Part shown: piece after piece, positions 804-54,976 of the stretch
Numbering within the stretch: the first letter of the stretch is position 1
How the letters are laid out: each line of letters starts with the position of its first letter
Virus record (IMG/VR): IMGVR_UViG_3300033066_001842
Direction: 5' to 3' (one strand)
Length of the DNA: 64,000 nucleotides
DNA from: a virus
The notes under the pieces: generated by a model
Told to the model about the DNA's origin: nothing
Database searches by the model: none
What the model saw: the letters and a program-made list of their open reading frames with translations, nothing else
Made by a program: the position numbers and the translations under genes

Positions 804-824
804 TAAGTGGGTTTGTAGTAGCAA

Positions 825-1250
825 TTGGGAAAACAGGGGTTTTGCAAACCTAAGTTGCCAGTTCAACTCTGGCCTTATCCACCAATATTTTTAGTGTTTA
901 AAGATAAAGAAAAAAGAAAAGCCTACGATACAAATTGGAATAATTTAAATAGGCAACGTAAAAGAGACATAAATAAGAAATGGAAAGCTAAACAGCAAGA
1001 AGCTTTCCAAAGTATTAAAAATTTGTATAAGTGTTATTTTTGTAGTGAAGCTAATTCAGTTTGTTTAGATTTTCATCATGTCAATCCGAAAACTAAAAAA
1101 TTTAATGTAGCTAAAATGTCTGGAAGTTTTAGTATGGAAAATCTACTTAACGAAATTTCAAAATGTGTTGTTCTCTGTGCCAACTGTCATAGAAAATTAC
1201 ATGCCAATCTTCTGCCTGATCCTTTCGATAATCCCACCCAAGGGATATAA
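825..1250 (+). CDS. HNH homing endonuclease
   Basis: CYFCSEANSVCLDFHHVNP...CANCHRKLH: HNH motif with paired Cys zinc knuckle; located inside the tRNA cluster. Confidence 0.7.
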   Translation: MGKQGFCKPKLPVQLWPYPPIFLVFKDKEKRKAYDTNWNNLNRQRKRDINKKWKAKQQEAFQSIKNLYKCYFCSEANSVCLDFHHVNPKTKKFNVAKMSGSFSMENLLNEISKCVVLCANCHRKLHANLLPDPFDNPTQGI

Positions 1251-6798: not shown

Positions 6799-9630
6799 TT
6801 ATTTAATCCTCTTGATTTGAGCCCAGTTGGCTCCTCTATACATTTTCACAGGACACCAAAATCCTTTAATCCTCTTATCCTCTTGTTCCATAACCGAAAG
6901 AAACTCTATACATTGTTCGTCTGTCCAAACCTTTGGCTTCTCAAATACCAACTCATCGTGGACTTGCAAAAGTGGAACACCATCCATACCATACCTATCA
7001 AAGAAATTAATCATATCCCCTTGAACGTGATCGGCTGAAGTTCCTTGCCCCAAGAATGAAAACGCTTGTTTTGCACATTCCAAAGGCTCATCTTGCAATC
7101 TAATAAATCTACCAGTAGCAGCCTTTAGAATACCAGTTTTTTCAATCTCTTGCAATACCCTCTGTTGCCATTCCCGAATAATCTTAAACTTTCCAAAGTA
7201 TTTCCCTTCCAACAAATCATTAGCTTTGGCACGAGCCTCTAATGACGTATCTTTAAAAATACGTTGGGCCAAATTTACACCAGAAAAAGCAATAATTCCG
7301 CCAGCGTATTCCCAATCATAGTAGGGTACAATCGCCCCCATCTTAATTGCCGCTTTAATCTTGGGTTTAGCTAAGTCCTCTTCTCTCAATAAGATAATAC
7401 CTTCCCCATAATTGCTACCATGGGCCACAGATTTAGCTACCGCTCTCTCCGTTTTGCCCAACATCTTAGCGGCGTCTTTGAATGCCCCATCAGAAACGTT
7501 TACAATCCATTGGAAAGCATCTTTTTCAATCTTGTATGTATCAAATCCGGCATACCACATACAATTATGAGAATAAAAACCATTAGATATATAAGTTTTA
7601 GACGTAGTAGTAATGCAAACTAATGGTTGTGGATTATCATATTCTATAACATTTAATACAGTAGCTCGCCCCTCACCATTTTTACCCCAAGTTCTCTTAC
7701 CATTCCATATTTTTTTAGATTTTTGTAAAAGTCTCTCTGGCCTTTTTTCTCCTAAAAAACGCAAACTATTCCAGATACCTGTTAATTGTATTGTTTTATG
7801 TGTTTTTCTGTATTGAGGTTGTTTCTTTTTTATTGAAATAGAAAAATTAAAACAATCTTTATAAAGAAGTTTTTCTACTTTATCAAAAATAGGTCCATCA
7901 GCTTGCCCAAATTGCACTCCACCAGAAGAAACGCTACCTTCACCATCAAAAATACCAGCAATATACCCATCATTAAATTGTGTTTTTGTAGTCCAAGGTT
8001 CAGCAGTAAATGGTAAAATATCACCAGTTACAATATCTTTCATTTCTACCCAAACCCTAGATAAATAACCTTTTTTTGACTTACGCAAAACAACTACTAA
8101 ATGGTCATCAGCGGCAGTTAGACTACCTCTATTGGTTTCAATAGTAAAAGTTTTTTTTCTTAAGAACTGAAGGTCAGTAATAGAACTTTCTTTAAATCTA
8201 GTACCTCTATTTCCTTGATCTTGGTTTTCATCAAATCCAATCAATTTATCATCTACAAATAAATCTTTAGCATAAATCCAAGTTAAATCTTCTTTCAATA
8301 TTTTTGTGTAGGGATCTACGCACATACGGAATTCCAAATTGGACTTATCAGCTTTAATCAAACATTGGTCATCCCTTTTTGGAATAATAGCAACCCTGGC
8401 TTGAGCAAAGGGGGATTGTTCCTCTTGTGGTGTATCCTCATCATATCCAGGAATATTTTGGAAATTAGGATCTTTAGAACTAAAACGCCCAGTACTTGTA
8501 CCAATAACAATAAATCGCGGATGCATTAAACCGTCATCCCCGAAAAATTTATCGTCAAACCAACTCTTAAAGCCTTTACCCGCACCCTTGTATTGGTACG
8601 CTTTTATCAACAATTGATAGGGTAATGGGTGACTGTCAATTCCCTGTACAAATTCGGTGAGCCCAACATCATTATTATCGGCTAACTCTGTTAGGGCTTT
8701 TTCAATAGCTTCTGCATTAAATTTATCAAGAAAGATCTTGTGCTTTTTGAAATAGTTAACAGCAGCAGCAGGAGCATTAGGATTAAAATGTTCATATTTC
8801 TTAGTTTTTCCGCTCTGTGTATAGGGGAAAAGCTTTTCTTTTTCGTCATCGCTAATCTTATCCAATCTGGCAATTAGATCACGATCTACGCGAACTCCAC
8901 CCTTTTGCATCAAATGAGCAATATAGGAAACCTTCAAAAGATCCCGATAGAATTGATAGGGAACACCCTTCTCTTCCATCTCTTTCAGCATTTCTATAAA
9001 GCCCTCGCGTGCCACATAACTATCCATGGCATTGTAACCAAAGACTTTATGGCTTGGACAGGGGCCAGTACATGTGACGCCACGACACATTTTAAACTGA
9101 GGCAACCCACAATAGAATGTGTTCATTGTCCACAAATTAAGGAATCCTAAGCTTCCTTTTTCTCCACCAACCTTTCCCCCGCTACTCTGTTTCACCAAAT
9201 CCTGATTCAACAAAAAGTGGGTAATCATCCCATCTTCAAAGCAATCTAGGGAAATCTCTCGCCCAAGTACTTTCTCAATAACTTCTTTTTCAGCCCCAAT
9301 AACAGAATAGCCAACCAATCTAGTCATACCTAATTCCGCCACCTGTACAATAAAGTCTACAACTTCTTTACTGTAAGGGGCGGAGGCAGCTAAATTATGG
9401 TTGGCTAAACCTGTAATGGTTGGCTTATTAGTTTTGGGATCGAACTCAAAATCTATTCCCGTAAACTCAGAGGGATTCTCTAAAATTTCACGCAAATATT
9501 TATTCCCTTCGGCATACTTTGGCCAAAAGGATTTTCCATCAAGTGATTTCGAGTTCTCAATACTTGTGAAAAGATTTAACTGTACTTCACGATTCCCGTA
9601 AAGGTCTATCTCTTCGAATCTCTTTGACAT
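6799..9630 (-). CDS. family A DNA polymerase (Pol I-like) interrupted by an intein
   Basis: Pol A motif A DKSNLEFRM (cf. DYSQIELRI), motif B RAVAKSVAHGSNYGEG, motif C LQVHDELVF; the 943-aa length is inflated by a ~253-aa insert. Confidence 0.75.
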   Translation of the reverse strand: MSKRFEEIDLYGNREVQLNLFTSIENSKSLDGKSFWPKYAEGNKYLREILENPSEFTGIDFEFDPKTNKPTITGLANHNLAASAPYSKEVVDFIVQVAELGMTRLVGYSVIGAEKEVIEKVLGREISLDCFEDGMITHFLLNQDLVKQSSGGKVGGEKGSLGFLNLWTMNTFYCGLPQFKMCRGVTCTGPCPSHKVFGYNAMDSYVAREGFIEMLKEMEEKGVPYQFYRDLLKVSYIAHLMQKGGVRVDRDLIARLDKISDDEKEKLFPYTQSGKTKKYEHFNPNAPAAAVNYFKKHKIFLDKFNAEAIEKALTELADNNDVGLTEFVQGIDSHPLPYQLLIKAYQYKGAGKGFKSWFDDKFFGDDGLMHPRFIVIGTSTGRFSSKDPNFQNIPGYDEDTPQEEQSPFAQARVAIIPKRDDQCLIKADKSNLEFRMCVDPYTKILKEDLTWIYAKDLFVDDKLIGFDENQDQGNRGTRFKESSITDLQFLRKKTFTIETNRGSLTAADDHLVVVLRKSKKGYLSRVWVEMKDIVTGDILPFTAEPWTTKTQFNDGYIAGIFDGEGSVSSGGVQFGQADGPIFDKVEKLLYKDCFNFSISIKKKQPQYRKTHKTIQLTGIWNSLRFLGEKRPERLLQKSKKIWNGKRTWGKNGEGRATVLNVIEYDNPQPLVCITTTSKTYISNGFYSHNCMWYAGFDTYKIEKDAFQWIVNVSDGAFKDAAKMLGKTERAVAKSVAHGSNYGEGIILLREEDLAKPKIKAAIKMGAIVPYYDWEYAGGIIAFSGVNLAQRIFKDTSLEARAKANDLLEGKYFGKFKIIREWQQRVLQEIEKTGILKAATGRFIRLQDEPLECAKQAFSFLGQGTSADHVQGDMINFFDRYGMDGVPLLQVHDELVFEKPKVWTDEQCIEFLSVMEQEDKRIKGFWCPVKMYRGANWAQIKRIK
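7564..8322 (-). mobile_element. intein with LAGLIDADG homing endonuclease inside the DNA polymerase
   Basis: the insert starts at Cys (LEFRM|CVDPYTKI) right after Pol motif A and ends SHN|C (codons checked on the DNA: TAT TCT CAT AAT TGT); internal GYIAGIFDGEGSV LAGLIDADG-type motif. Confidence 0.65.
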
Positions 9631-13505: not shown

Positions 13506-13638
13506 TGGATGGGGTGAGATTCGAACTCACAACCTCTCGTTTAGCATACGATAAAGTTAATCAAAACGGTTCAAATTTACGTTTGAACTAAAAGGTAGAC
13601 TAACAGTTTTTAGCGCTCTACCATTGAGCTACCCACCC
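13506..13638 (-). ncRNA. tRNA-like RNA with a ~70-nt insert replacing the anticodon arm (element E1)
   Basis: ends pair as a 7-bp acceptor stem GGGTGGG/CCCATCC; D-arm GCTC-AATGGTA-GAGC; T-arm GTGAG-TTCGAAT-CTCAC; discriminator A, no CCA; the insert has a CTAAAA/TTTTAG helix closing a 14-nt loop and a GTTCAAA/TTTGAAC hairpin. Confidence 0.45.
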
Positions 13639-25717: not shown

Positions 25718-26206
25718 TTACTTGCTCAGAAAGGCGGGAATCACCTTCTCAATCGCCTCCGACCGCTTCTTATCAATATAATTATTGTAAGCAGTCAGCC
25801 AAGCTTCTTTCCGCCCCTTCATCACATCAAATTCACTCTCGCTATCGGAACAAATGGAGAAACCAAACCCCGCCGTATCATTCAAAGCCCATTCCCCGGC
25901 AAAATACTTTTCCGAAATCTGCATAATCTGCCGTACATTGGAGCCCAACGGAATTTCAGGACACAGCATACAAAGGGTAAAACCCTTTCGTCTCTTATGT
26001 TTCCCCTCCATAACCGTCATAATAGGCTTATCCACAGTAACAAAAATGGCGCTCAACTTGTTACCAATCCCATCATCAAAATTCAACGCAGTAAATTCAT
26101 TTTCCGTAATTTCGTCCAAGGTAATCATGTAATTAGCCGCTGCAAGCAACAAGCTTTTAAACATGCTCATAAAACCTTCATTACCAAAATTCTTATTCAT
26201 TGTCAA
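25718..26206 (-). CDS. hypothetical protein
   Basis: 162-aa ORF; the overlapping plus-strand 252-aa ORF is judged spurious. Confidence 0.4.
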   Translation of the reverse strand: MTMNKNFGNEGFMSMFKSLLLAAANYMITLDEITENEFTALNFDDGIGNKLSAIFVTVDKPIMTVMEGKHKRRKGFTLCMLCPEIPLGSNVRQIMQISEKYFAGEWALNDTAGFGFSICSDSESEFDVMKGRKEAWLTAYNNYIDKKRSEAIEKVIPAFLSK

Positions 26207-34317: not shown

Positions 34318-34397
34318 GGCCCTGTACCGCCCTCGCCTTCTAAGCGTGAAAAGCGTAACGGATGAAAATGTGGGTTCGAATCCCTCCAGGGCTTCCA
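34318..34397 (+). tRNA. atypical tRNA-like gene, anticodon arm consistent with Arg(UCU), no canonical D-arm
   Basis: acceptor GGCCCTG/CAGGGCT (G·U at 1-72), T-arm GTGGG-TTCGAAT-CCCTC, CCA encoded; anticodon arm CTCGC-CTTCTAA-GCGTG sits only 5 nt after position 9, then a 21-nt unstructured stretch precedes the T-arm. Confidence 0.3.
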
Positions 34398-34712: not shown

Positions 34713-34787
34713 GTTCCGAGTTAGCTCAAAGGTAGAGCAAGCGACTGATAATCGTTAGACCATAGTTCGATTCTATGACTCGGAACC
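34713..34787 (+). tRNA. tRNA-Ile(GAU)
   Basis: perfect acceptor GTTCCGA/TCGGAAC, D-arm GCTC-AAAGGTA-GAGC, anticodon loop CTGATAA, T-arm CATAG-TTCGATT-CTATG; CCA not encoded. Confidence 0.65.
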
Positions 34788-34988
34788 ATTTTTATGCCTG
34801 AAACAAAAAAACAAATACAAGATAGACTTAAAACTGTAATGCCAATTGGTGACACAGATTTCACAGACATGTCTGAAACATCTTTTGTCATGTGGTTTAA
34901 TGGTCACTGCTTCCTGTGGAAATTTGATAAAGATTCCCAAAAATGGGATTGTATTGACGAACTCTAGTTTATATGTTATGCTAAATGT

Positions 34989-36171: not shown

Positions 36172-36209
36172 CTACCTTATCAATAAATGATATAATCTTT
36201 ATATGGAAG

Positions 36210-36301
36210 GTGGGCTGCAATGGTGCGGAAACTGTCTTGAAAACAGTCCTATGTAGCGATCACTGCATAAGGGTTCGATTCCTTCACCTTCCTCCATTTT
36301 A
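36210..36301 (+). tRNA. tRNA-Ser(UGA)
   Basis: 92 nt with long variable arm; perfect acceptor GGAAGGT/ACCTTCC, perfect anticodon stem ACTGT/ACAGT loop CTTGAAA, CCA encoded. Confidence 0.65.
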
Positions 36302-36452: not shown

Positions 36453-36530
36453 TGGCCTCCTAGCTCCAATCGGTAGAGGCAACGGACTTAAAATCCGTAC
36501 AGTCTGGGTTCGAATCCCAGGGGGGCTACC
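36453..36530 (+). tRNA. tRNA with Leu anticodon UAA but short (5-nt) variable region
   Basis: acceptor GGCCTCC/GGGGGCT (2 G·U), perfect anticodon stem ACGGA/TCCGT loop CTTAAAA, T-arm CTGGG-TTCGAAT-CCCAG, discriminator A73, CCA encoded. Confidence 0.5.
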
Positions 36531-36554
36531 ATTTTTGTTGTAAACTAAATATAT

Positions 36555-36630
36555 GGCGCGTTGATGTAATTGGCAACCATACCAGTCTTAGAAACTGTTT
36601 TTATAGGTTCGAATCCTATACGCGCCACCA
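36555..36630 (+). tRNA. tRNA with Leu anticodon UAG but short (5-nt) variable region
   Basis: perfect acceptor GGCGCGT/ACGCGCC, anticodon loop CTTAGAA (4 bp plus one mismatch in the stem), T-arm ATAGG-TTCGAAT-CCTAT, A73, CCA encoded. Confidence 0.5.
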
Positions 36631-36633
36631 ATT

Positions 36634-36725
36634 CCCCGTTGGGAGGATGGCTCCTCAAGCGGCTTTATAATCCGTCACACCAGATCAGTGTCTAGAACGT
36701 AGTTCGATTCTACGGGCGGGGACCA
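36634..36725 (+). tRNA. aberrant 92-nt type-II-like tRNA with a 9-nt anticodon loop CUUUAUAAU
   Basis: acceptor CCCCGTT/GGCGGGG (2 G·U), D-stem GGAG/CTCC, 4-bp anticodon stem GCGG/CCGT closing a 9-nt loop, variable stem-loop ACAC-CAGATCA-GTGT, perfect T-arm CGTAG-TTCGATT-CTACG, A73, CCA encoded. Confidence 0.35.
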
Positions 36726-36772: not shown

Positions 36773-37639
36773 ATGCAATTCCATTATGCCGTCTATTTCT
36801 ATGTCGGCTTTTCTGGACATTCCCCACACAGCAGCTTTAAACATTCTGCTGGTGAAATCCACATTAACTTAGACAAACCCCGTATTGAAAAAGAATTAGA
36901 ACGCAACAATATGGGTATCCTCATAATGGCACGCCTAACCTCCTCTGACGCCATTATGGAAACCATCGGCCTCCTAAACGCCCTAGAACATACATTTCCC
37001 TCTGAAAGAGTGGATCTCTTCATCCCCTATTATCCCTATTCCCGCGCTGACCGCGTAATCGGAAATGGTGGCGGGGATTCTTTTGGCGTAGAAATCATTA
37101 CCAACCTTTTTTCCGATGAAATTTGTCCTAACATTGGAAAAATTATCACCCTGGACACCCATTCTGCCGTTTCTCATTCCGTAGTAGATTCAGATATCCT
37201 CTGTCACTACGAATTATTCCAAGAATCAGGAATTAATATCCCCGTCCACGCCAACATTATTACCGTAGCTCCCGACAAAGGCGCTTCCAATCGTGCTTCC
37301 GTCTTTGCATCCTGTCTCAAAACAGGTTTAATCACTGCTTCCAAAGAACGCGATCTTGGTGGCCACATCTCCTATTACAAAGTTCCAGAAAACCTCCCCT
37401 CCAACGCCTACTACATCGTAATCGATGATATCTGTGATGGGGGCGCAACCTTCAATCTATTAGCAAAAAGTTTGCCCCAAAATGCTAAAAAAATTCTAAT
37501 CGTAACACACGGCATTTTTTCCCAAGGTGTAAATGCTATTCATGGTTATGATTATATTGTTACAACAAATTCAATTCATGATTTTCCAGCAACTTCAAAA
37601 AACTTTATTGTAAAGGATCTTACGAAATGTCTTGTGTAA
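36773..37639 (+). CDS. prs: ribose-phosphate pyrophosphokinase (PRPP synthetase)
   Basis: FIPYYPYSRADR (cf. Prs PYFGYARQDR) and PRPP-binding YIVIDDICDGGATF (cf. VDDIIDTGGT). Confidence 0.65.
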   Translation: MQFHYAVYFYVGFSGHSPHSSFKHSAGEIHINLDKPRIEKELERNNMGILIMARLTSSDAIMETIGLLNALEHTFPSERVDLFIPYYPYSRADRVIGNGGGDSFGVEIITNLFSDEICPNIGKIITLDTHSAVSHSVVDSDILCHYELFQESGINIPVHANIITVAPDKGASNRASVFASCLKTGLITASKERDLGGHISYYKVPENLPSNAYYIVIDDICDGGATFNLLAKSLPQNAKKILIVTHGIFSQGVNAIHGYDYIVTTNSIHDFPATSKNFIVKDLTKCLV

Positions 37640-39078
37640 ACCCTCTCCTCCATACTGATGTTTACAAGATGGGCCACATGGAGCAATATGCCCCTGGAAC
37701 TACCCGTATATATTCCAACATCGTAACCCGTTCCGCAAGAAAATATCCCGCCGTCCTAAATTTCGGAACACAATACTATCTTTCCGAATATCTTTCCAAA
37801 CCAATTACCAAAGCCCATGTGGACGAATTTCTCGACCTAAACAATCGTATCCTTTCCTCCACATCCAACGAAGTTTACACCAAATTACGCGCCCTTGAAA
37901 AATTAGGCTTCGTTCCCCTAATCATCAAAGCTTTACCAGAAGGTAACGTTTACCCAATTGGGACACCCCTTCTCACAGCTACAAACCATCCTGACTATCC
38001 AGAATTCGCGTGGACTGTCGGATTTTACGAAAGCTTACTTCTAAAAATCTGGAACACTTGTACCGTAGCCACTTTTTCGCGCAAACTAAAACAACTGTGC
38101 TACCTTTACGCCGACCTAACCTGTGATTCCAATCTCCATGTGGATTACCAAGTTCACGACTTCGGCTATCGTGGCTGCTCATCTGAAGAAACTGCCGCAA
38201 TCTCCGGTATGTCTCACCTAGTAAATTTTCTAGGCACAGATACCGTTCTCGCCGTAAAATACGCCAAAGACTACTATTACGCAACGGACCCAATCGGTCT
38301 ATCTGTCCCTGCATCCGAACATTCTGTAATGTGTTCTTTTGGCCCAACCAACGAAATCGATGCATTCCGCCACATGCTTAAAACATATCCTACTGGAATT
38401 GTTTCAATCGTGTGTGACACCTACAACATTTGGAAAGTTCTTTCAGAATTCGTACCCCTTCTGAAAGACGAAATTCTTGCGCGTAACGGAAAAGTAGTAT
38501 TTCGCCCCGACTCAGGCGACCAAGAAAAAATCCTTTGTGGAAACCCTGACGCTTCCGACCCTCTAGAAAAGAAAGGTGTCTTCCAACTCCTCTTCGAACA
38601 ATTTGGTGAATTTCCAAACAAAAAAGGATATCGCACCCTCCACCCAAAAGTGGGTGTTGTCTATGGTGACGGATTCTACTACGATAAATTCCACACGGTT
38701 TTCAACCGGATGAAAACTGACAAAATCTCCTCAGCCGAACTAACAGTAGGGGTTGGCGGAATTTTGCTCCAACAACACAACCGCGATGATATGGGTTTTT
38801 CCATGAAAGCCACCTATATCGAACAAAACGGTAACGGCGTAAACATCTTTAAAGACCCAATTACCGATCCTGGCAAAAAATCCCTCAAAGGACTGCTCTC
38901 CGTAACCCAAGAACCCTACCATGGGGGCTATACTTGGAAAACCAACCAAGAAATCACATGGGAACAAGAGAAAAGAGGGGCTTTACAGGTGGTCTTTAAT
39001 CGTGGTAAACTATTAAATCAGACTACTTTTGATGAAATTCGCAAAAGGGCCGATTCCTCAATCGTTAAAAGATATTAA
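37627..39078 (+). CDS. nadV: nicotinamide phosphoribosyltransferase (NadV/NAMPT-like)
   Basis: 483 aa, the size expected for NadV; HDFGYRG motif of the NAPRTase/NAMPT family; sits immediately downstream of prs, whose product PRPP is its co-substrate. Confidence 0.6.
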   Translation: MSCVNPLLHTDVYKMGHMEQYAPGTTRIYSNIVTRSARKYPAVLNFGTQYYLSEYLSKPITKAHVDEFLDLNNRILSSTSNEVYTKLRALEKLGFVPLIIKALPEGNVYPIGTPLLTATNHPDYPEFAWTVGFYESLLLKIWNTCTVATFSRKLKQLCYLYADLTCDSNLHVDYQVHDFGYRGCSSEETAAISGMSHLVNFLGTDTVLAVKYAKDYYYATDPIGLSVPASEHSVMCSFGPTNEIDAFRHMLKTYPTGIVSIVCDTYNIWKVLSEFVPLLKDEILARNGKVVFRPDSGDQEKILCGNPDASDPLEKKGVFQLLFEQFGEFPNKKGYRTLHPKVGVVYGDGFYYDKFHTVFNRMKTDKISSAELTVGVGGILLQQHNRDDMGFSMKATYIEQNGNGVNIFKDPITDPGKKSLKGLLSVTQEPYHGGYTWKTNQEITWEQEKRGALQVVFNRGKLLNQTTFDEIRKRADSSIVKRY

Positions 39079-39083
39079 TTTTT

Positions 39084-39159
39084 GCTTGGGAGGCTGAAGA
39101 GTGGAGGCACCGCCCTTACAAGACGGCTAAAGTGGGTTCAACTCCCACCCCAAGTACCA
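39084..39159 (+). tRNA. tRNA-Val(UAC)
   Basis: acceptor GCTTGGG/CCCAAGT (G·U at 1-72), anticodon loop CTTACAA (stem has one C·A), T-arm GTGGG-TTCAACT-CCCAC, CCA encoded. Confidence 0.55.
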
Positions 39160-54878: not shown

Positions 54879-54902
54879 TAATAATAATAGTTAGTTTTAT
54901 CG

Positions 54903-54976
54903 CGGAATAGTGAAACGGTATCATGCTAGTCTCATACGCTTGAGTTAAGGGTTCAACTCCCTTTTCCGCAACCAAT
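54903..54976 (+). tRNA. tRNA-Met(CAU) with unpaired C1·A72 (initiator-like)
   Basis: acceptor CGCGGAA/TTCCGCA with the first pair C·A, D-arm GTGA-AACGGTA-TCAT, anticodon loop CTCATAC, T-arm AAGGG-TTCAACT-CCCTT, CCA encoded; the anticodon stem lacks the three G-C pairs of canonical initiators. Confidence 0.5.

Follow-up and report, generated by a model that had tools for sequence, protein, structure and literature searches.

A phage tRNA(UAU) with a GAU hairpin as its extra arm is a divergent member of a widespread five-helix family and a candidate AUA decoder

Which codon would be read, and which amino acid carried, by a tRNA that combines a long extra arm with an apparently enlarged anticodon loop? 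The question is raised by the 92 nt at positions 36634-36725 (+ strand) of a 64,000-nt stretch of viral DNA (IMG/VR record IMGVR_UViG_3300033066_001842), which at its whole length we call the window. The gene, whose sequence is CCCCGUUGGGAGGAUGGCUCCUCAAGCGGCUUUAUAAUCCGUCACACCAGAUCAGUGUCUAGAACGUAGUUCGAUUCUACGGGCGGGGACCA, starts 3 nt past the CCA of the preceding tRNA, within a tRNA cluster. In its minimum-free-energy structure, obtained with RNAfold, a 4-bp anticodon stem closes a formal anticodon loop of 9 nt, CUUUAUAAU. A sequence-only reading had taken this loop as it stands and had proposed a suppressor, a frameshifting tRNA or a pseudogene.

Direct reading of the sequence bore out the general outline given there, namely a tRNA gene with a class-II-like long arm, acceptor stem, D stem, T arm, A73 and CCA. 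The sequence itself, a covariance model of the family (R1, described below) and ARAGORN run with -ps all describe a five-helix tRNA(UAU) with an encoded CCA over the full 36634-36725. The acceptor stem pairs CCCCGUU (36634-36640) with GGCGGGG (36715-36721) in 7 bp, two of them G·U. Next come G8 and G9, hence a gene without U8, and a short D arm, GAGGA-UGGC-UCCUC (36643-36656), which is apparent in both sequence and fold and has a loop of 4-6 nt. The decoding arm, which we call arm 1 (36659-36675), has in the fold, in ARAGORN and in R1 a 4-bp stem, GCGG/CCGU, and leaves C36663·U36671 unpaired; these four pairs are thus flanked by the C·U on the loop side and by an A·C on the far side. In the register that is conserved in the family, its loop consists of the 7 nt UUUAUAA (36664-36670), with the anticodon UAU, for codon AUA, at 36666-36668 between U33 and A37, a placement given by ARAGORN as well as by family comparison.

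The "variable arm", our arm 2 (36677-36691), is a hairpin with the stem ACAC/GUGU and the 7-nt loop CAGAUCA, as seen in the sequence and by R1. Its loop positions 3-5 (36683-36685) are GAU, the anticodon of the major tRNA-Ile, and the pair equivalent to 29-41 is C-G. The earlier reading had noted the hairpin and overlooked this conserved GAU within its 7-nt loop. A 6-nt linker, CUAGAA (36692-36697, from the R1 alignment), leads to the T arm, CGUAG-UUCGAUU-CUACG (36698-36714), whose perfect stem is evident from sequence, fold and R1, and the gene closes with the discriminator A73 and the encoded CCA (36722-36725).

General tRNA finders gave little for this gene. ARAGORN did not call it at its default threshold, and the Rfam tRNA model (RF00005, gathering threshold 29 bits) had no match to it at E<=10, even when offered a 105-nt slice. 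When the ARAGORN threshold was lowered to 95%, a tRNA-Ile(tat) was called that has UUUAUAA as its 7-nt loop and, adjoining this loop, a C·U mismatch. The fold energy of the 92 nt was no better than that of shuffled sequences (z = -0.86). Covariance-model scoring had been suggested as a check, and its outcome depended on the model: the Rfam model was silent, but R1, which was built from 20 relatives in other phages and bacteria with the window sequence left out, found exactly 36634-36725 over model positions 1-92, with 60.1 bits and an E value of 1.2e-13. The runner-up in the window, and the best of the ordinary tRNAs, was an ordinary tRNA-Ile(GAU) at 34715-34788 with 35 bits. The tRNA structure of the 92-nt gene is far beyond chance.

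The relatives were found by pattern scans, which gave at least 120 unique sequences in unrelated phages and bacterial tRNA arrays. The first pattern consisted of the anticodon region and the T loop, and imposed neither A73-CCA nor CAGAU. It matched two unrelated huge-phage contigs whose genes, of about 93-95 nt, have different acceptor stems, and both genes carried the hairpin loop motif CAGAU in their long arm as well as A73-CCA, neither of which was part of the pattern. Two further patterns, run on IMG/VR, both impose A73 and CCA. Pattern B contained only CCAGAT, the T loop and ACCA, and returned at least 120 rows from which 67 unique family sequences were parsed; pattern C contained only CUUAUAA, a gap of 26-42 nt, the T loop and ACCA, and returned at least 87 unique sequences.

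When 20 diverse members were aligned with the window sequence left out (alignment A3), the five-helix structure paired in 96.4% of cells, compared with 58.8% in shuffles and 40-49% with slid partners. All five helices covary, with 25 of the 27 pairs changing on both sides among the 20 members. Pairing is complete (100%) in the acceptor, D and arm-2 helices, and reaches 95% in the T stem and 90% in arm 1; every one of the 7 acceptor pairs changes on both sides, and the 4 pairs of arm 2 are all compensatory (4/4). The acceptor/T-stem geometry is 7/5, and it too is backed by covariation in the family.

Among named phages, R1 scored 88.7 bits in Sinorhizobium phage Phosso, where the gene is annotated as tRNA-Ile(tat), 87.3 bits in Synechococcus phage S-SRM01, which has no annotation there, 57.3 bits in Pectobacterium phage PhiM1, annotated as tRNA-Ile, and 43.6 bits in E. 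coli phage ESCO41 (vB_EcoS_ESCO41), again without annotation. The PhiM1 copy lies at 25840-25937 of NC_041854, and the ESCO41 copy at about 7376-7472 of NC_047820. BLAST added members in phages of Vibrio, Klebsiella, Xanthomonas and Stenotrophomonas, of which those of Vibrio WD615 and Stenotrophomonas DLP_6 are annotated as tRNA-Ile. A scan of bacteria with one genome per species gave about 35 true members, and in Terriglobia MAGs the members lie in arrays of more than 20 tRNA genes. Three such loci in Terriglobia/Acidobacteriota MAGs (L217, L247 and L262) place the member in dense arrays of 20-24 tRNAs, with tRNA-Cys and tRNA-Arg(ACG) as neighbours. Phages also have ordinary class I tRNA(UAU) genes in abundance, and the idea that a phage UAU tRNA must have a GAU arm was rejected on the strength of their number. 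A full-text literature search of incomplete coverage turned up no account of a GAU hairpin on a long-arm tRNA-Ile(UAU), so that a prior description is possible; for the family and its GAU-bearing arm we found no published description, and some members already carry the automatic label tRNA-Ile(tat).

The relatives suggest how arm 1 should be read. In pattern B, which left arm 1 unspecified, the arm-1 loop was YUUAUAN in 67/67 unique sequences among the matches listed, and across the family it has a pyrimidine at 32, an invariant U33, UAU and an invariant A37. The adjoining position 31·39 is relaxed. It is non-Watson-Crick in 41 of 119 family members (34%) among the matches listed, with C·A (24), A·A (7), A·C (6), C·U (2) and others, compared with 1 of 98 class I phage tRNA(UAU) that have the same loop (Fisher p 1e-11, likewise among the matches listed). 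About two thirds (66%) of the homologues among the matches listed close it with a Watson-Crick or G·U pair. The C·U of the window copy recurs in two unrelated members, L006 and L007, which serve as examples and give no frequency estimate, the search pattern having fixed both the C and the U.

An enlarged loop thus appears as a real tendency of the family, whose conserved register would still be a 7-nt loop with UAU at 34-36, and on this comparative evidence the apparent 9-nt loop of the window copy is best read as a 7-nt loop next to a non-pairing 31·39, a family trait. The 9-nt loop on a 4-bp stem that had been described holds as the result of an energy-only fold, but not in the conserved register. 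A conventional 7-nt fold with better energy had been named as counter-evidence; such a fold does exist, in the reading UUUAUAA with 31·39 left unpaired, although energy alone yields the larger loop. A subfamily of 101-104 nt (L045, L025, L062 and others, as well as phages PhiM1 and ESCO41) has a much longer arm 1, in which a 3-nt bulge separates an outer helix of 4 bp, CUUA/UAAG, from an inner helix of 4-5 bp; its D arm is GCUA-AUAU-UGGC, and R1 aligns the 5′ part of this subfamily poorly.

Across the family the stem of arm 2 measures 3-6 bp, and its loop of 7 nt holds GAU at positions 3-5. Pattern C left arm 2 unspecified, and an NNGAUNN hairpin was present in 85 of the 87 unique long-arm tRNA(UAU) sequences among the matches listed. 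The commonest loops among the matches listed are CAGAUUA (25), UAGAUAA (23) and CAGAUAA (13), and a few, CUGAUAA or CUGAUUA, are exact or near-exact anticodon loops of tRNA-Ile(GAU). As a control of specificity, pattern C with CAU in place of UAU gave 23 matches, mostly due to chance, and 0 with a GAU arm. Patterns B and C and the CAU control thus agree, among the matches listed, that UAU in the decoding loop and GAU on the side arm are associated in both directions. In several Terriglobia/Acidobacteriota MAGs the arm-2 loop is CGGACGA, with GAC, in place of CGGAUCA, with GAU.

Judged by pairs and spacing, arm 2 resembles the anticodon arm of tRNA-Ile(GAU) beyond the GAU triplet. A C-G pair occupies the 29-41 equivalent in 41 of 62 unique arm-2 sequences among the matches listed and in 22 of 36 ordinary phage tRNA-Ile(GAU), compared with only 14 of 79 arm-1 sequences among the matches listed and about 11% of all other tRNAs at the same loci. 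The linker from arm 2 to the T stem, of 5 nt in 73/119 and 6 nt in 36/119 members among the matches listed, resembles a class I variable loop. Moreover, when R1 met the ordinary class I tRNA-Ile(GAU) of the same phage (34715-34788, +), it placed the anticodon arm, AGCGA-CUGAUAA-UCGUU, together with the 5-nt variable loop, onto model arm 2 and its linker. Position 33 of arm 2 is mostly A rather than U, and position 37 is variable (the window copy has C at its equivalent), because of which arm 2 is unsuited to decoding.

We considered whether arm 2 might be a recent copy of the co-resident tRNA-Ile(GAU) arm and rejected this, because its stems do not track the co-resident arm above random (6.0 mismatches of 10, and 6.2 with random loci). 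By inspection, no consistent complementarity that would allow loop-loop pairing between arm 1 and arm 2 was seen. With arm 2 removed and the anticodon masked, comparison of the remaining body with 1531 ordinary tRNAs gave a diffuse isotype, with Met(CAU), Trp and Ile among the top and no Leu signal.

The window has a rich set of other tRNA genes, 20 called by ARAGORN and several more found by Rfam alone. A tRNA-Ala(UGC) at 809-881 (+) and a gene with the loop CUUACAA (Val, UAC) at 39084-39159 (+) were recognized by Rfam and left uncalled by ARAGORN at default, and with these two added the decoders of the window cover nearly all amino acids. At the 5′ edge of the cluster, 34318-34397 (+) is a tRNA-like gene with the anticodon loop CUUCUAA (UCU, Arg AGA) and the ending UCCA. 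Its D arm is nearly absent (4 nt, against 15 in the model), its variable region is about 22 nt long, and it scored 28.9 bits with the Rfam tRNA model, just below the 29-bit threshold, and had no ARAGORN call. On the other strand, 13506-13638 (-) is a 133-nt Rfam tRNA match of 48.8 bits with an insertion of about 60 nt past the anticodon region; it may be an intron-containing or otherwise interrupted gene, and ARAGORN with introns allowed gave an uncertain tRNA-Lys(ttt).

Two genes with the leucine anticodons UAA (36454-36531, +) and UAG (36555-36630, +) are of class I size, 78 and 76 nt, with A73 and without a long variable arm; short "Leu" tRNAs of 80 nt or less are frequent at related phage loci (23 with UAA, 36 with UAG). 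A tRNA-Ser(UGA) at 36205-36296 (+) matched best the Rfam tRNA-Sec model, at a sub-threshold 39.3 bits, and by eye has an 8-bp acceptor and a 4-bp T stem. It looks like the (8/4) tRNA-Ser that Mukai et al. reported from phages (PMC5389517). Far from the main tRNA clusters, 54901-54974 (+) encodes a tRNA(CAU) with the C1·A72 mismatch that marks bacterial initiators.

Directly downstream of the tRNA cluster, at 36773-39078 (+), two genes overlap by 13 nt, one for a PRPP-synthetase-like protein (288 aa) and the other for a nicotinamide phosphoribosyltransferase (483 aa). They form a pair for NAD salvage that is also present in contigs L003 and L005. The best database relatives of the PRPP-synthetase-like protein, on contigs L003-L005, are about 40% identical; these contigs are not syntenic for the tRNA cluster, and the protein had no relative among viral contigs. 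A megablast of the tRNA cluster against GenBank phages gave no match, and a search with an exact 27-mer from the 3′ half of the 92-nt gene likewise returned none.

AUA is used 146 times in the window, which is 13% of its isoleucine codons. No other tRNA seen in the window, including Ile(GAU) and the initiator-like CAU, can read it. Most bacteria read AUA with a CAU tRNA that carries lysidine. The synthetase recognizes an isoleucine tRNA mainly by its anticodon, and because of this the change from G34 to U34 that would serve AUA normally costs charging efficiency. C29-G41, G34, A35 and U36 are listed as isoleucine identity elements of E. coli (PMC9976931).

We favor, with a probability of roughly 60%, the reading that the 92-nt gene is a functional phage tRNA(UAU) which reads AUA, a divergent member of the widespread five-helix family, with arm 2 as a proposed signal for isoleucyl-tRNA synthetase. 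From its conserved sequence, arm 2 would best be understood as mimicking the anticodon arm that the major tRNA-Ile(GAU) carries. We infer that the gene is expressed, that its product is isoleucylated and that arm 2 acts as a synthetase handle. Isoleucyl-tRNA synthetase, which normally reads G34, A35 and U36, would find the GAU signal on arm 2 and could charge the tRNA with isoleucine through it, while the ribosome would decode AUA with the UAU of arm 1 and A33 would keep arm 2 from serving as an anticodon. A U34 tRNA could thereby read AUA without the lysidine (TilS) pathway of the host. That identity and decoding are physically split in this manner between two anticodon-like arms of a single tRNA is a tentative proposal, possible rather than probable.

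Some background is favorable to such a handle. IleRS, LeuRS and ValRS are closely related class Ia enzymes, of which LeuRS tolerates a long arm, and archaeal LeuRS reads the tip of the variable arm through its C-terminal domain, a precedent for base-specific reading of an arm tip. Other points count against it. Arm 2 carries A33 and has no conserved A37, which when modified to t6A37 is an isoleucine determinant in E. coli; in geometric terms, a domain of the synthetase would have to extend as far as the tip of a variable arm, or else the two arms would have to trade positions; some Terriglobia copies carry GAC, not GAU, on arm 2; and the viability of B. subtilis on a U34 mutant tRNA-Ile is a further weak point of the idea.

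The family could also be functional and the window copy a pseudogene in decay. This copy is among the weaker members because it has G8 in place of U8, an arm 1 of only four pairs mismatched at both ends (A·C and C·U) and, in the arm-2 loop CAGAUCA, a C at the position-37 equivalent. Such a view gains from the absence of an Rfam tRNA match, from an ARAGORN call that appears only below the default threshold, and from the nearest relative, L096, which shares the D arm of the window copy and has a fully paired arm 1 of 6 bp. However, the gene scores 60 bits against the family model with its helices intact and both UAU and GAU kept, mismatches at 31·39 are normal for the family, and the same C·U occurs in the unrelated L006 and L007, albeit through a pattern that fixed both bases. 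The T arm is perfect, the CCA is encoded, the gene is packed 3 nt behind the previous tRNA, and the same phage is present in two Logan assemblies, from other samples, with an identical 92-nt sequence. A pseudogene had already been suggested from the sequence; a good member of a large covarying family is no lone decaying copy, and we consider decay unlikely.

Still far less probable, indeed close to negligible, is a true 9-nt loop in an ochre suppressor (UUA reading UAA), a +1 frameshifting tRNA or a quadruplet-decoding tRNA. The energy-only fold does give such a loop and UUA does lie within it, but UUA and UAA occur as anticodons only in shifted registers that the homologues do not support, and a UUA anticodon would have U at position 37. 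In most homologues a standard pair closes a 7-nt loop, and all of them have UAU at 34-36 with U33 and A37 kept. TAA ends 49 of the 78 ORFs of at least 80 aa, and the non-overlapping ORFs of at least 80 aa in the standard code cover 80% of the window, much of the remainder being tRNA clusters. With TAA as the main stop and this coverage under the standard code, there is no sign of the in-frame UAA read-through that had been envisaged, and code 11 gave no loss of ORF integrity in the window.

Two other alternatives accept the gene and its UAU and dispute what the tRNA is for. It could be charged by a synthetase that tolerates long arms (LeuRS, SerRS or TyrRS), with leucine or another residue placed at AUA. 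The long extra arm and A73, which LeuRS uses, agree with this, and there are precedents: nematode class II tRNAs with UAU are charged only with leucine (PMC3333845), and allo-tRNAs with UAU exist in bacteria (PMC5389517). Against it, the D arms of the family are tiny or canonical class I and not tRNA-Leu-like, the geometry is 7/5 and not 8/4, and the family is spread over very different standard-code phages. The near-invariant GAU and the C-G pair of arm 2 would have no role for LeuRS or SerRS, the bacterial forms of which, to our knowledge, do not read the sequence of the arm. Leu, Ser and Tyr arms, unlike arm 2, are not known to have 5-6 unpaired nt behind them. We give this route about as little credit as decay of the window copy.

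Slightly less credible again is that the RNA is no translation adaptor at all and instead, with its tRNA shape and its two anticodon loops of isoleucine type, works as a decoy or regulator. In that role it might titrate out IleRS, pass for uncharged tRNA-Ile, or act as a sponge for a host nuclease or toxin that attacks tRNA-Ile, although we know of no nuclease specific for tRNA-Ile. The presence of two Ile-type loops per molecule and the relaxed 31·39 of arm 1 (34%, against 1% in ordinary tRNA(UAU), among the matches listed) would suit a decoy. Mukai et al. voiced the suspicion that translation makes no use of most allo-tRNA(UAU) species (PMC5389517), which points the same way. A decoy would leave unexplained, however, why conservation extends to the acceptor stem, the T arm, A73 and the encoded CCA, why U33 and A37 are strictly kept in arm 1, and why the gene sits within ordinary tRNA clusters and arrays in the place of an AUA decoder.

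If the favored reading of an AUA decoder with a synthetase handle is true, it would be a new solution to the AUA problem and a new use of the variable arm. Phages and mobile tRNA arrays would gain an AUA decoder that needs no lysidine and that the IleRS of any host could charge, and this solution would be portable, because members span phages of many hosts (E. coli, Klebsiella, Vibrio, Pectobacterium, Xanthomonas, Stenotrophomonas, Sinorhizobium and Synechococcus) as well as bacterial tRNA arrays. It would also be a natural design that uncouples the anticodon from amino-acid identity, and genetic-code engineering could use it as a scaffold. Should the handle idea prove wrong, a conserved GAU hairpin confined to UAU tRNAs would still call for an explanation. 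On the practical side, several family copies in phage genomes of GenBank lack annotation, and the window copy escapes the Rfam tRNA model.

Compared with known systems, the gene is not a canonical RF00005 tRNA, falling short of the threshold and having G8 in the place of U8. It shares with bacterial class II Leu, Ser and Tyr tRNAs the long variable arm, here a 4-bp hairpin, but not the anticodon, which is UAU in the conserved register. Nor is it an allo-tRNA, given the 7/5 geometry and the A73 of the five-helix family. What defines the allo-tRNAs of Mukai et al. (2017) is serine identity together with an acceptor/T geometry of 8/4 or 9/3 (PMC5389517); they resemble our family in their bacterial or phage origin, their long extra arm and UAU as a predominant anticodon, and in some of their subfamilies the anticodon stem is long and the D arm short, with a tetraloop.

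The nematode nev-tRNA-Ile(UAU) of Hamashima et al. (2012) is a long-arm tRNA charged with leucine (PMC3333845). It shares with the present family a long arm, a UAU anticodon foreign to Leu, Ser and Tyr, and a rare codon; nev-tRNAs are, however, eukaryotic and derived from tRNA-Leu, whereas the five-helix family shows no sign of a tRNA-Leu-like body and carries a mimic of the isoleucine anticodon. With its 4-bp stem the window copy is formally similar to bacterial tRNAs that have 4-bp anticodon stems (PMC13092985), and with its enlarged loop it formally resembles frameshift-suppressor tRNAs with 8-nt loops. Unlike the latter, its homologues stay in the 7-nt register and show no quadruplet logic, and the unpaired site is the loop-proximal 31·39.

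Class I tRNA-Ile(UAU), known from Mycoplasma mobile, Lactobacillus, tilS-bypass mutants of B. subtilis and phages, has the same UAU in YU-UAU-AA and presumably the same job, the reading of AUA without lysidine. The gene is nevertheless not a standard tRNA-Ile(UAU) of this kind: class I tRNA(UAU) has a variable loop of 4-5 nt and a paired 31-39 (97/98 among the matches listed), while the five-helix family has a GAU hairpin and often an unpaired 31·39. Arm 2 is like the anticodon arm of an ordinary tRNA-Ile(GAU) in its 7-nt loop, in GAU at 34-36, in a 29-41 pair that is mostly C-G and in the spacer of 5-6 nt that follows; it differs from that arm in that position 33 is mostly A, position 37 varies, the stem measures 3-6 bp and the whole hairpin sits where a variable arm does. 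As for the determinants of tRNA-Ile, the 92-nt gene has A73, its decoding arm has U34, and GAU and the C-G pair are found on arm 2.
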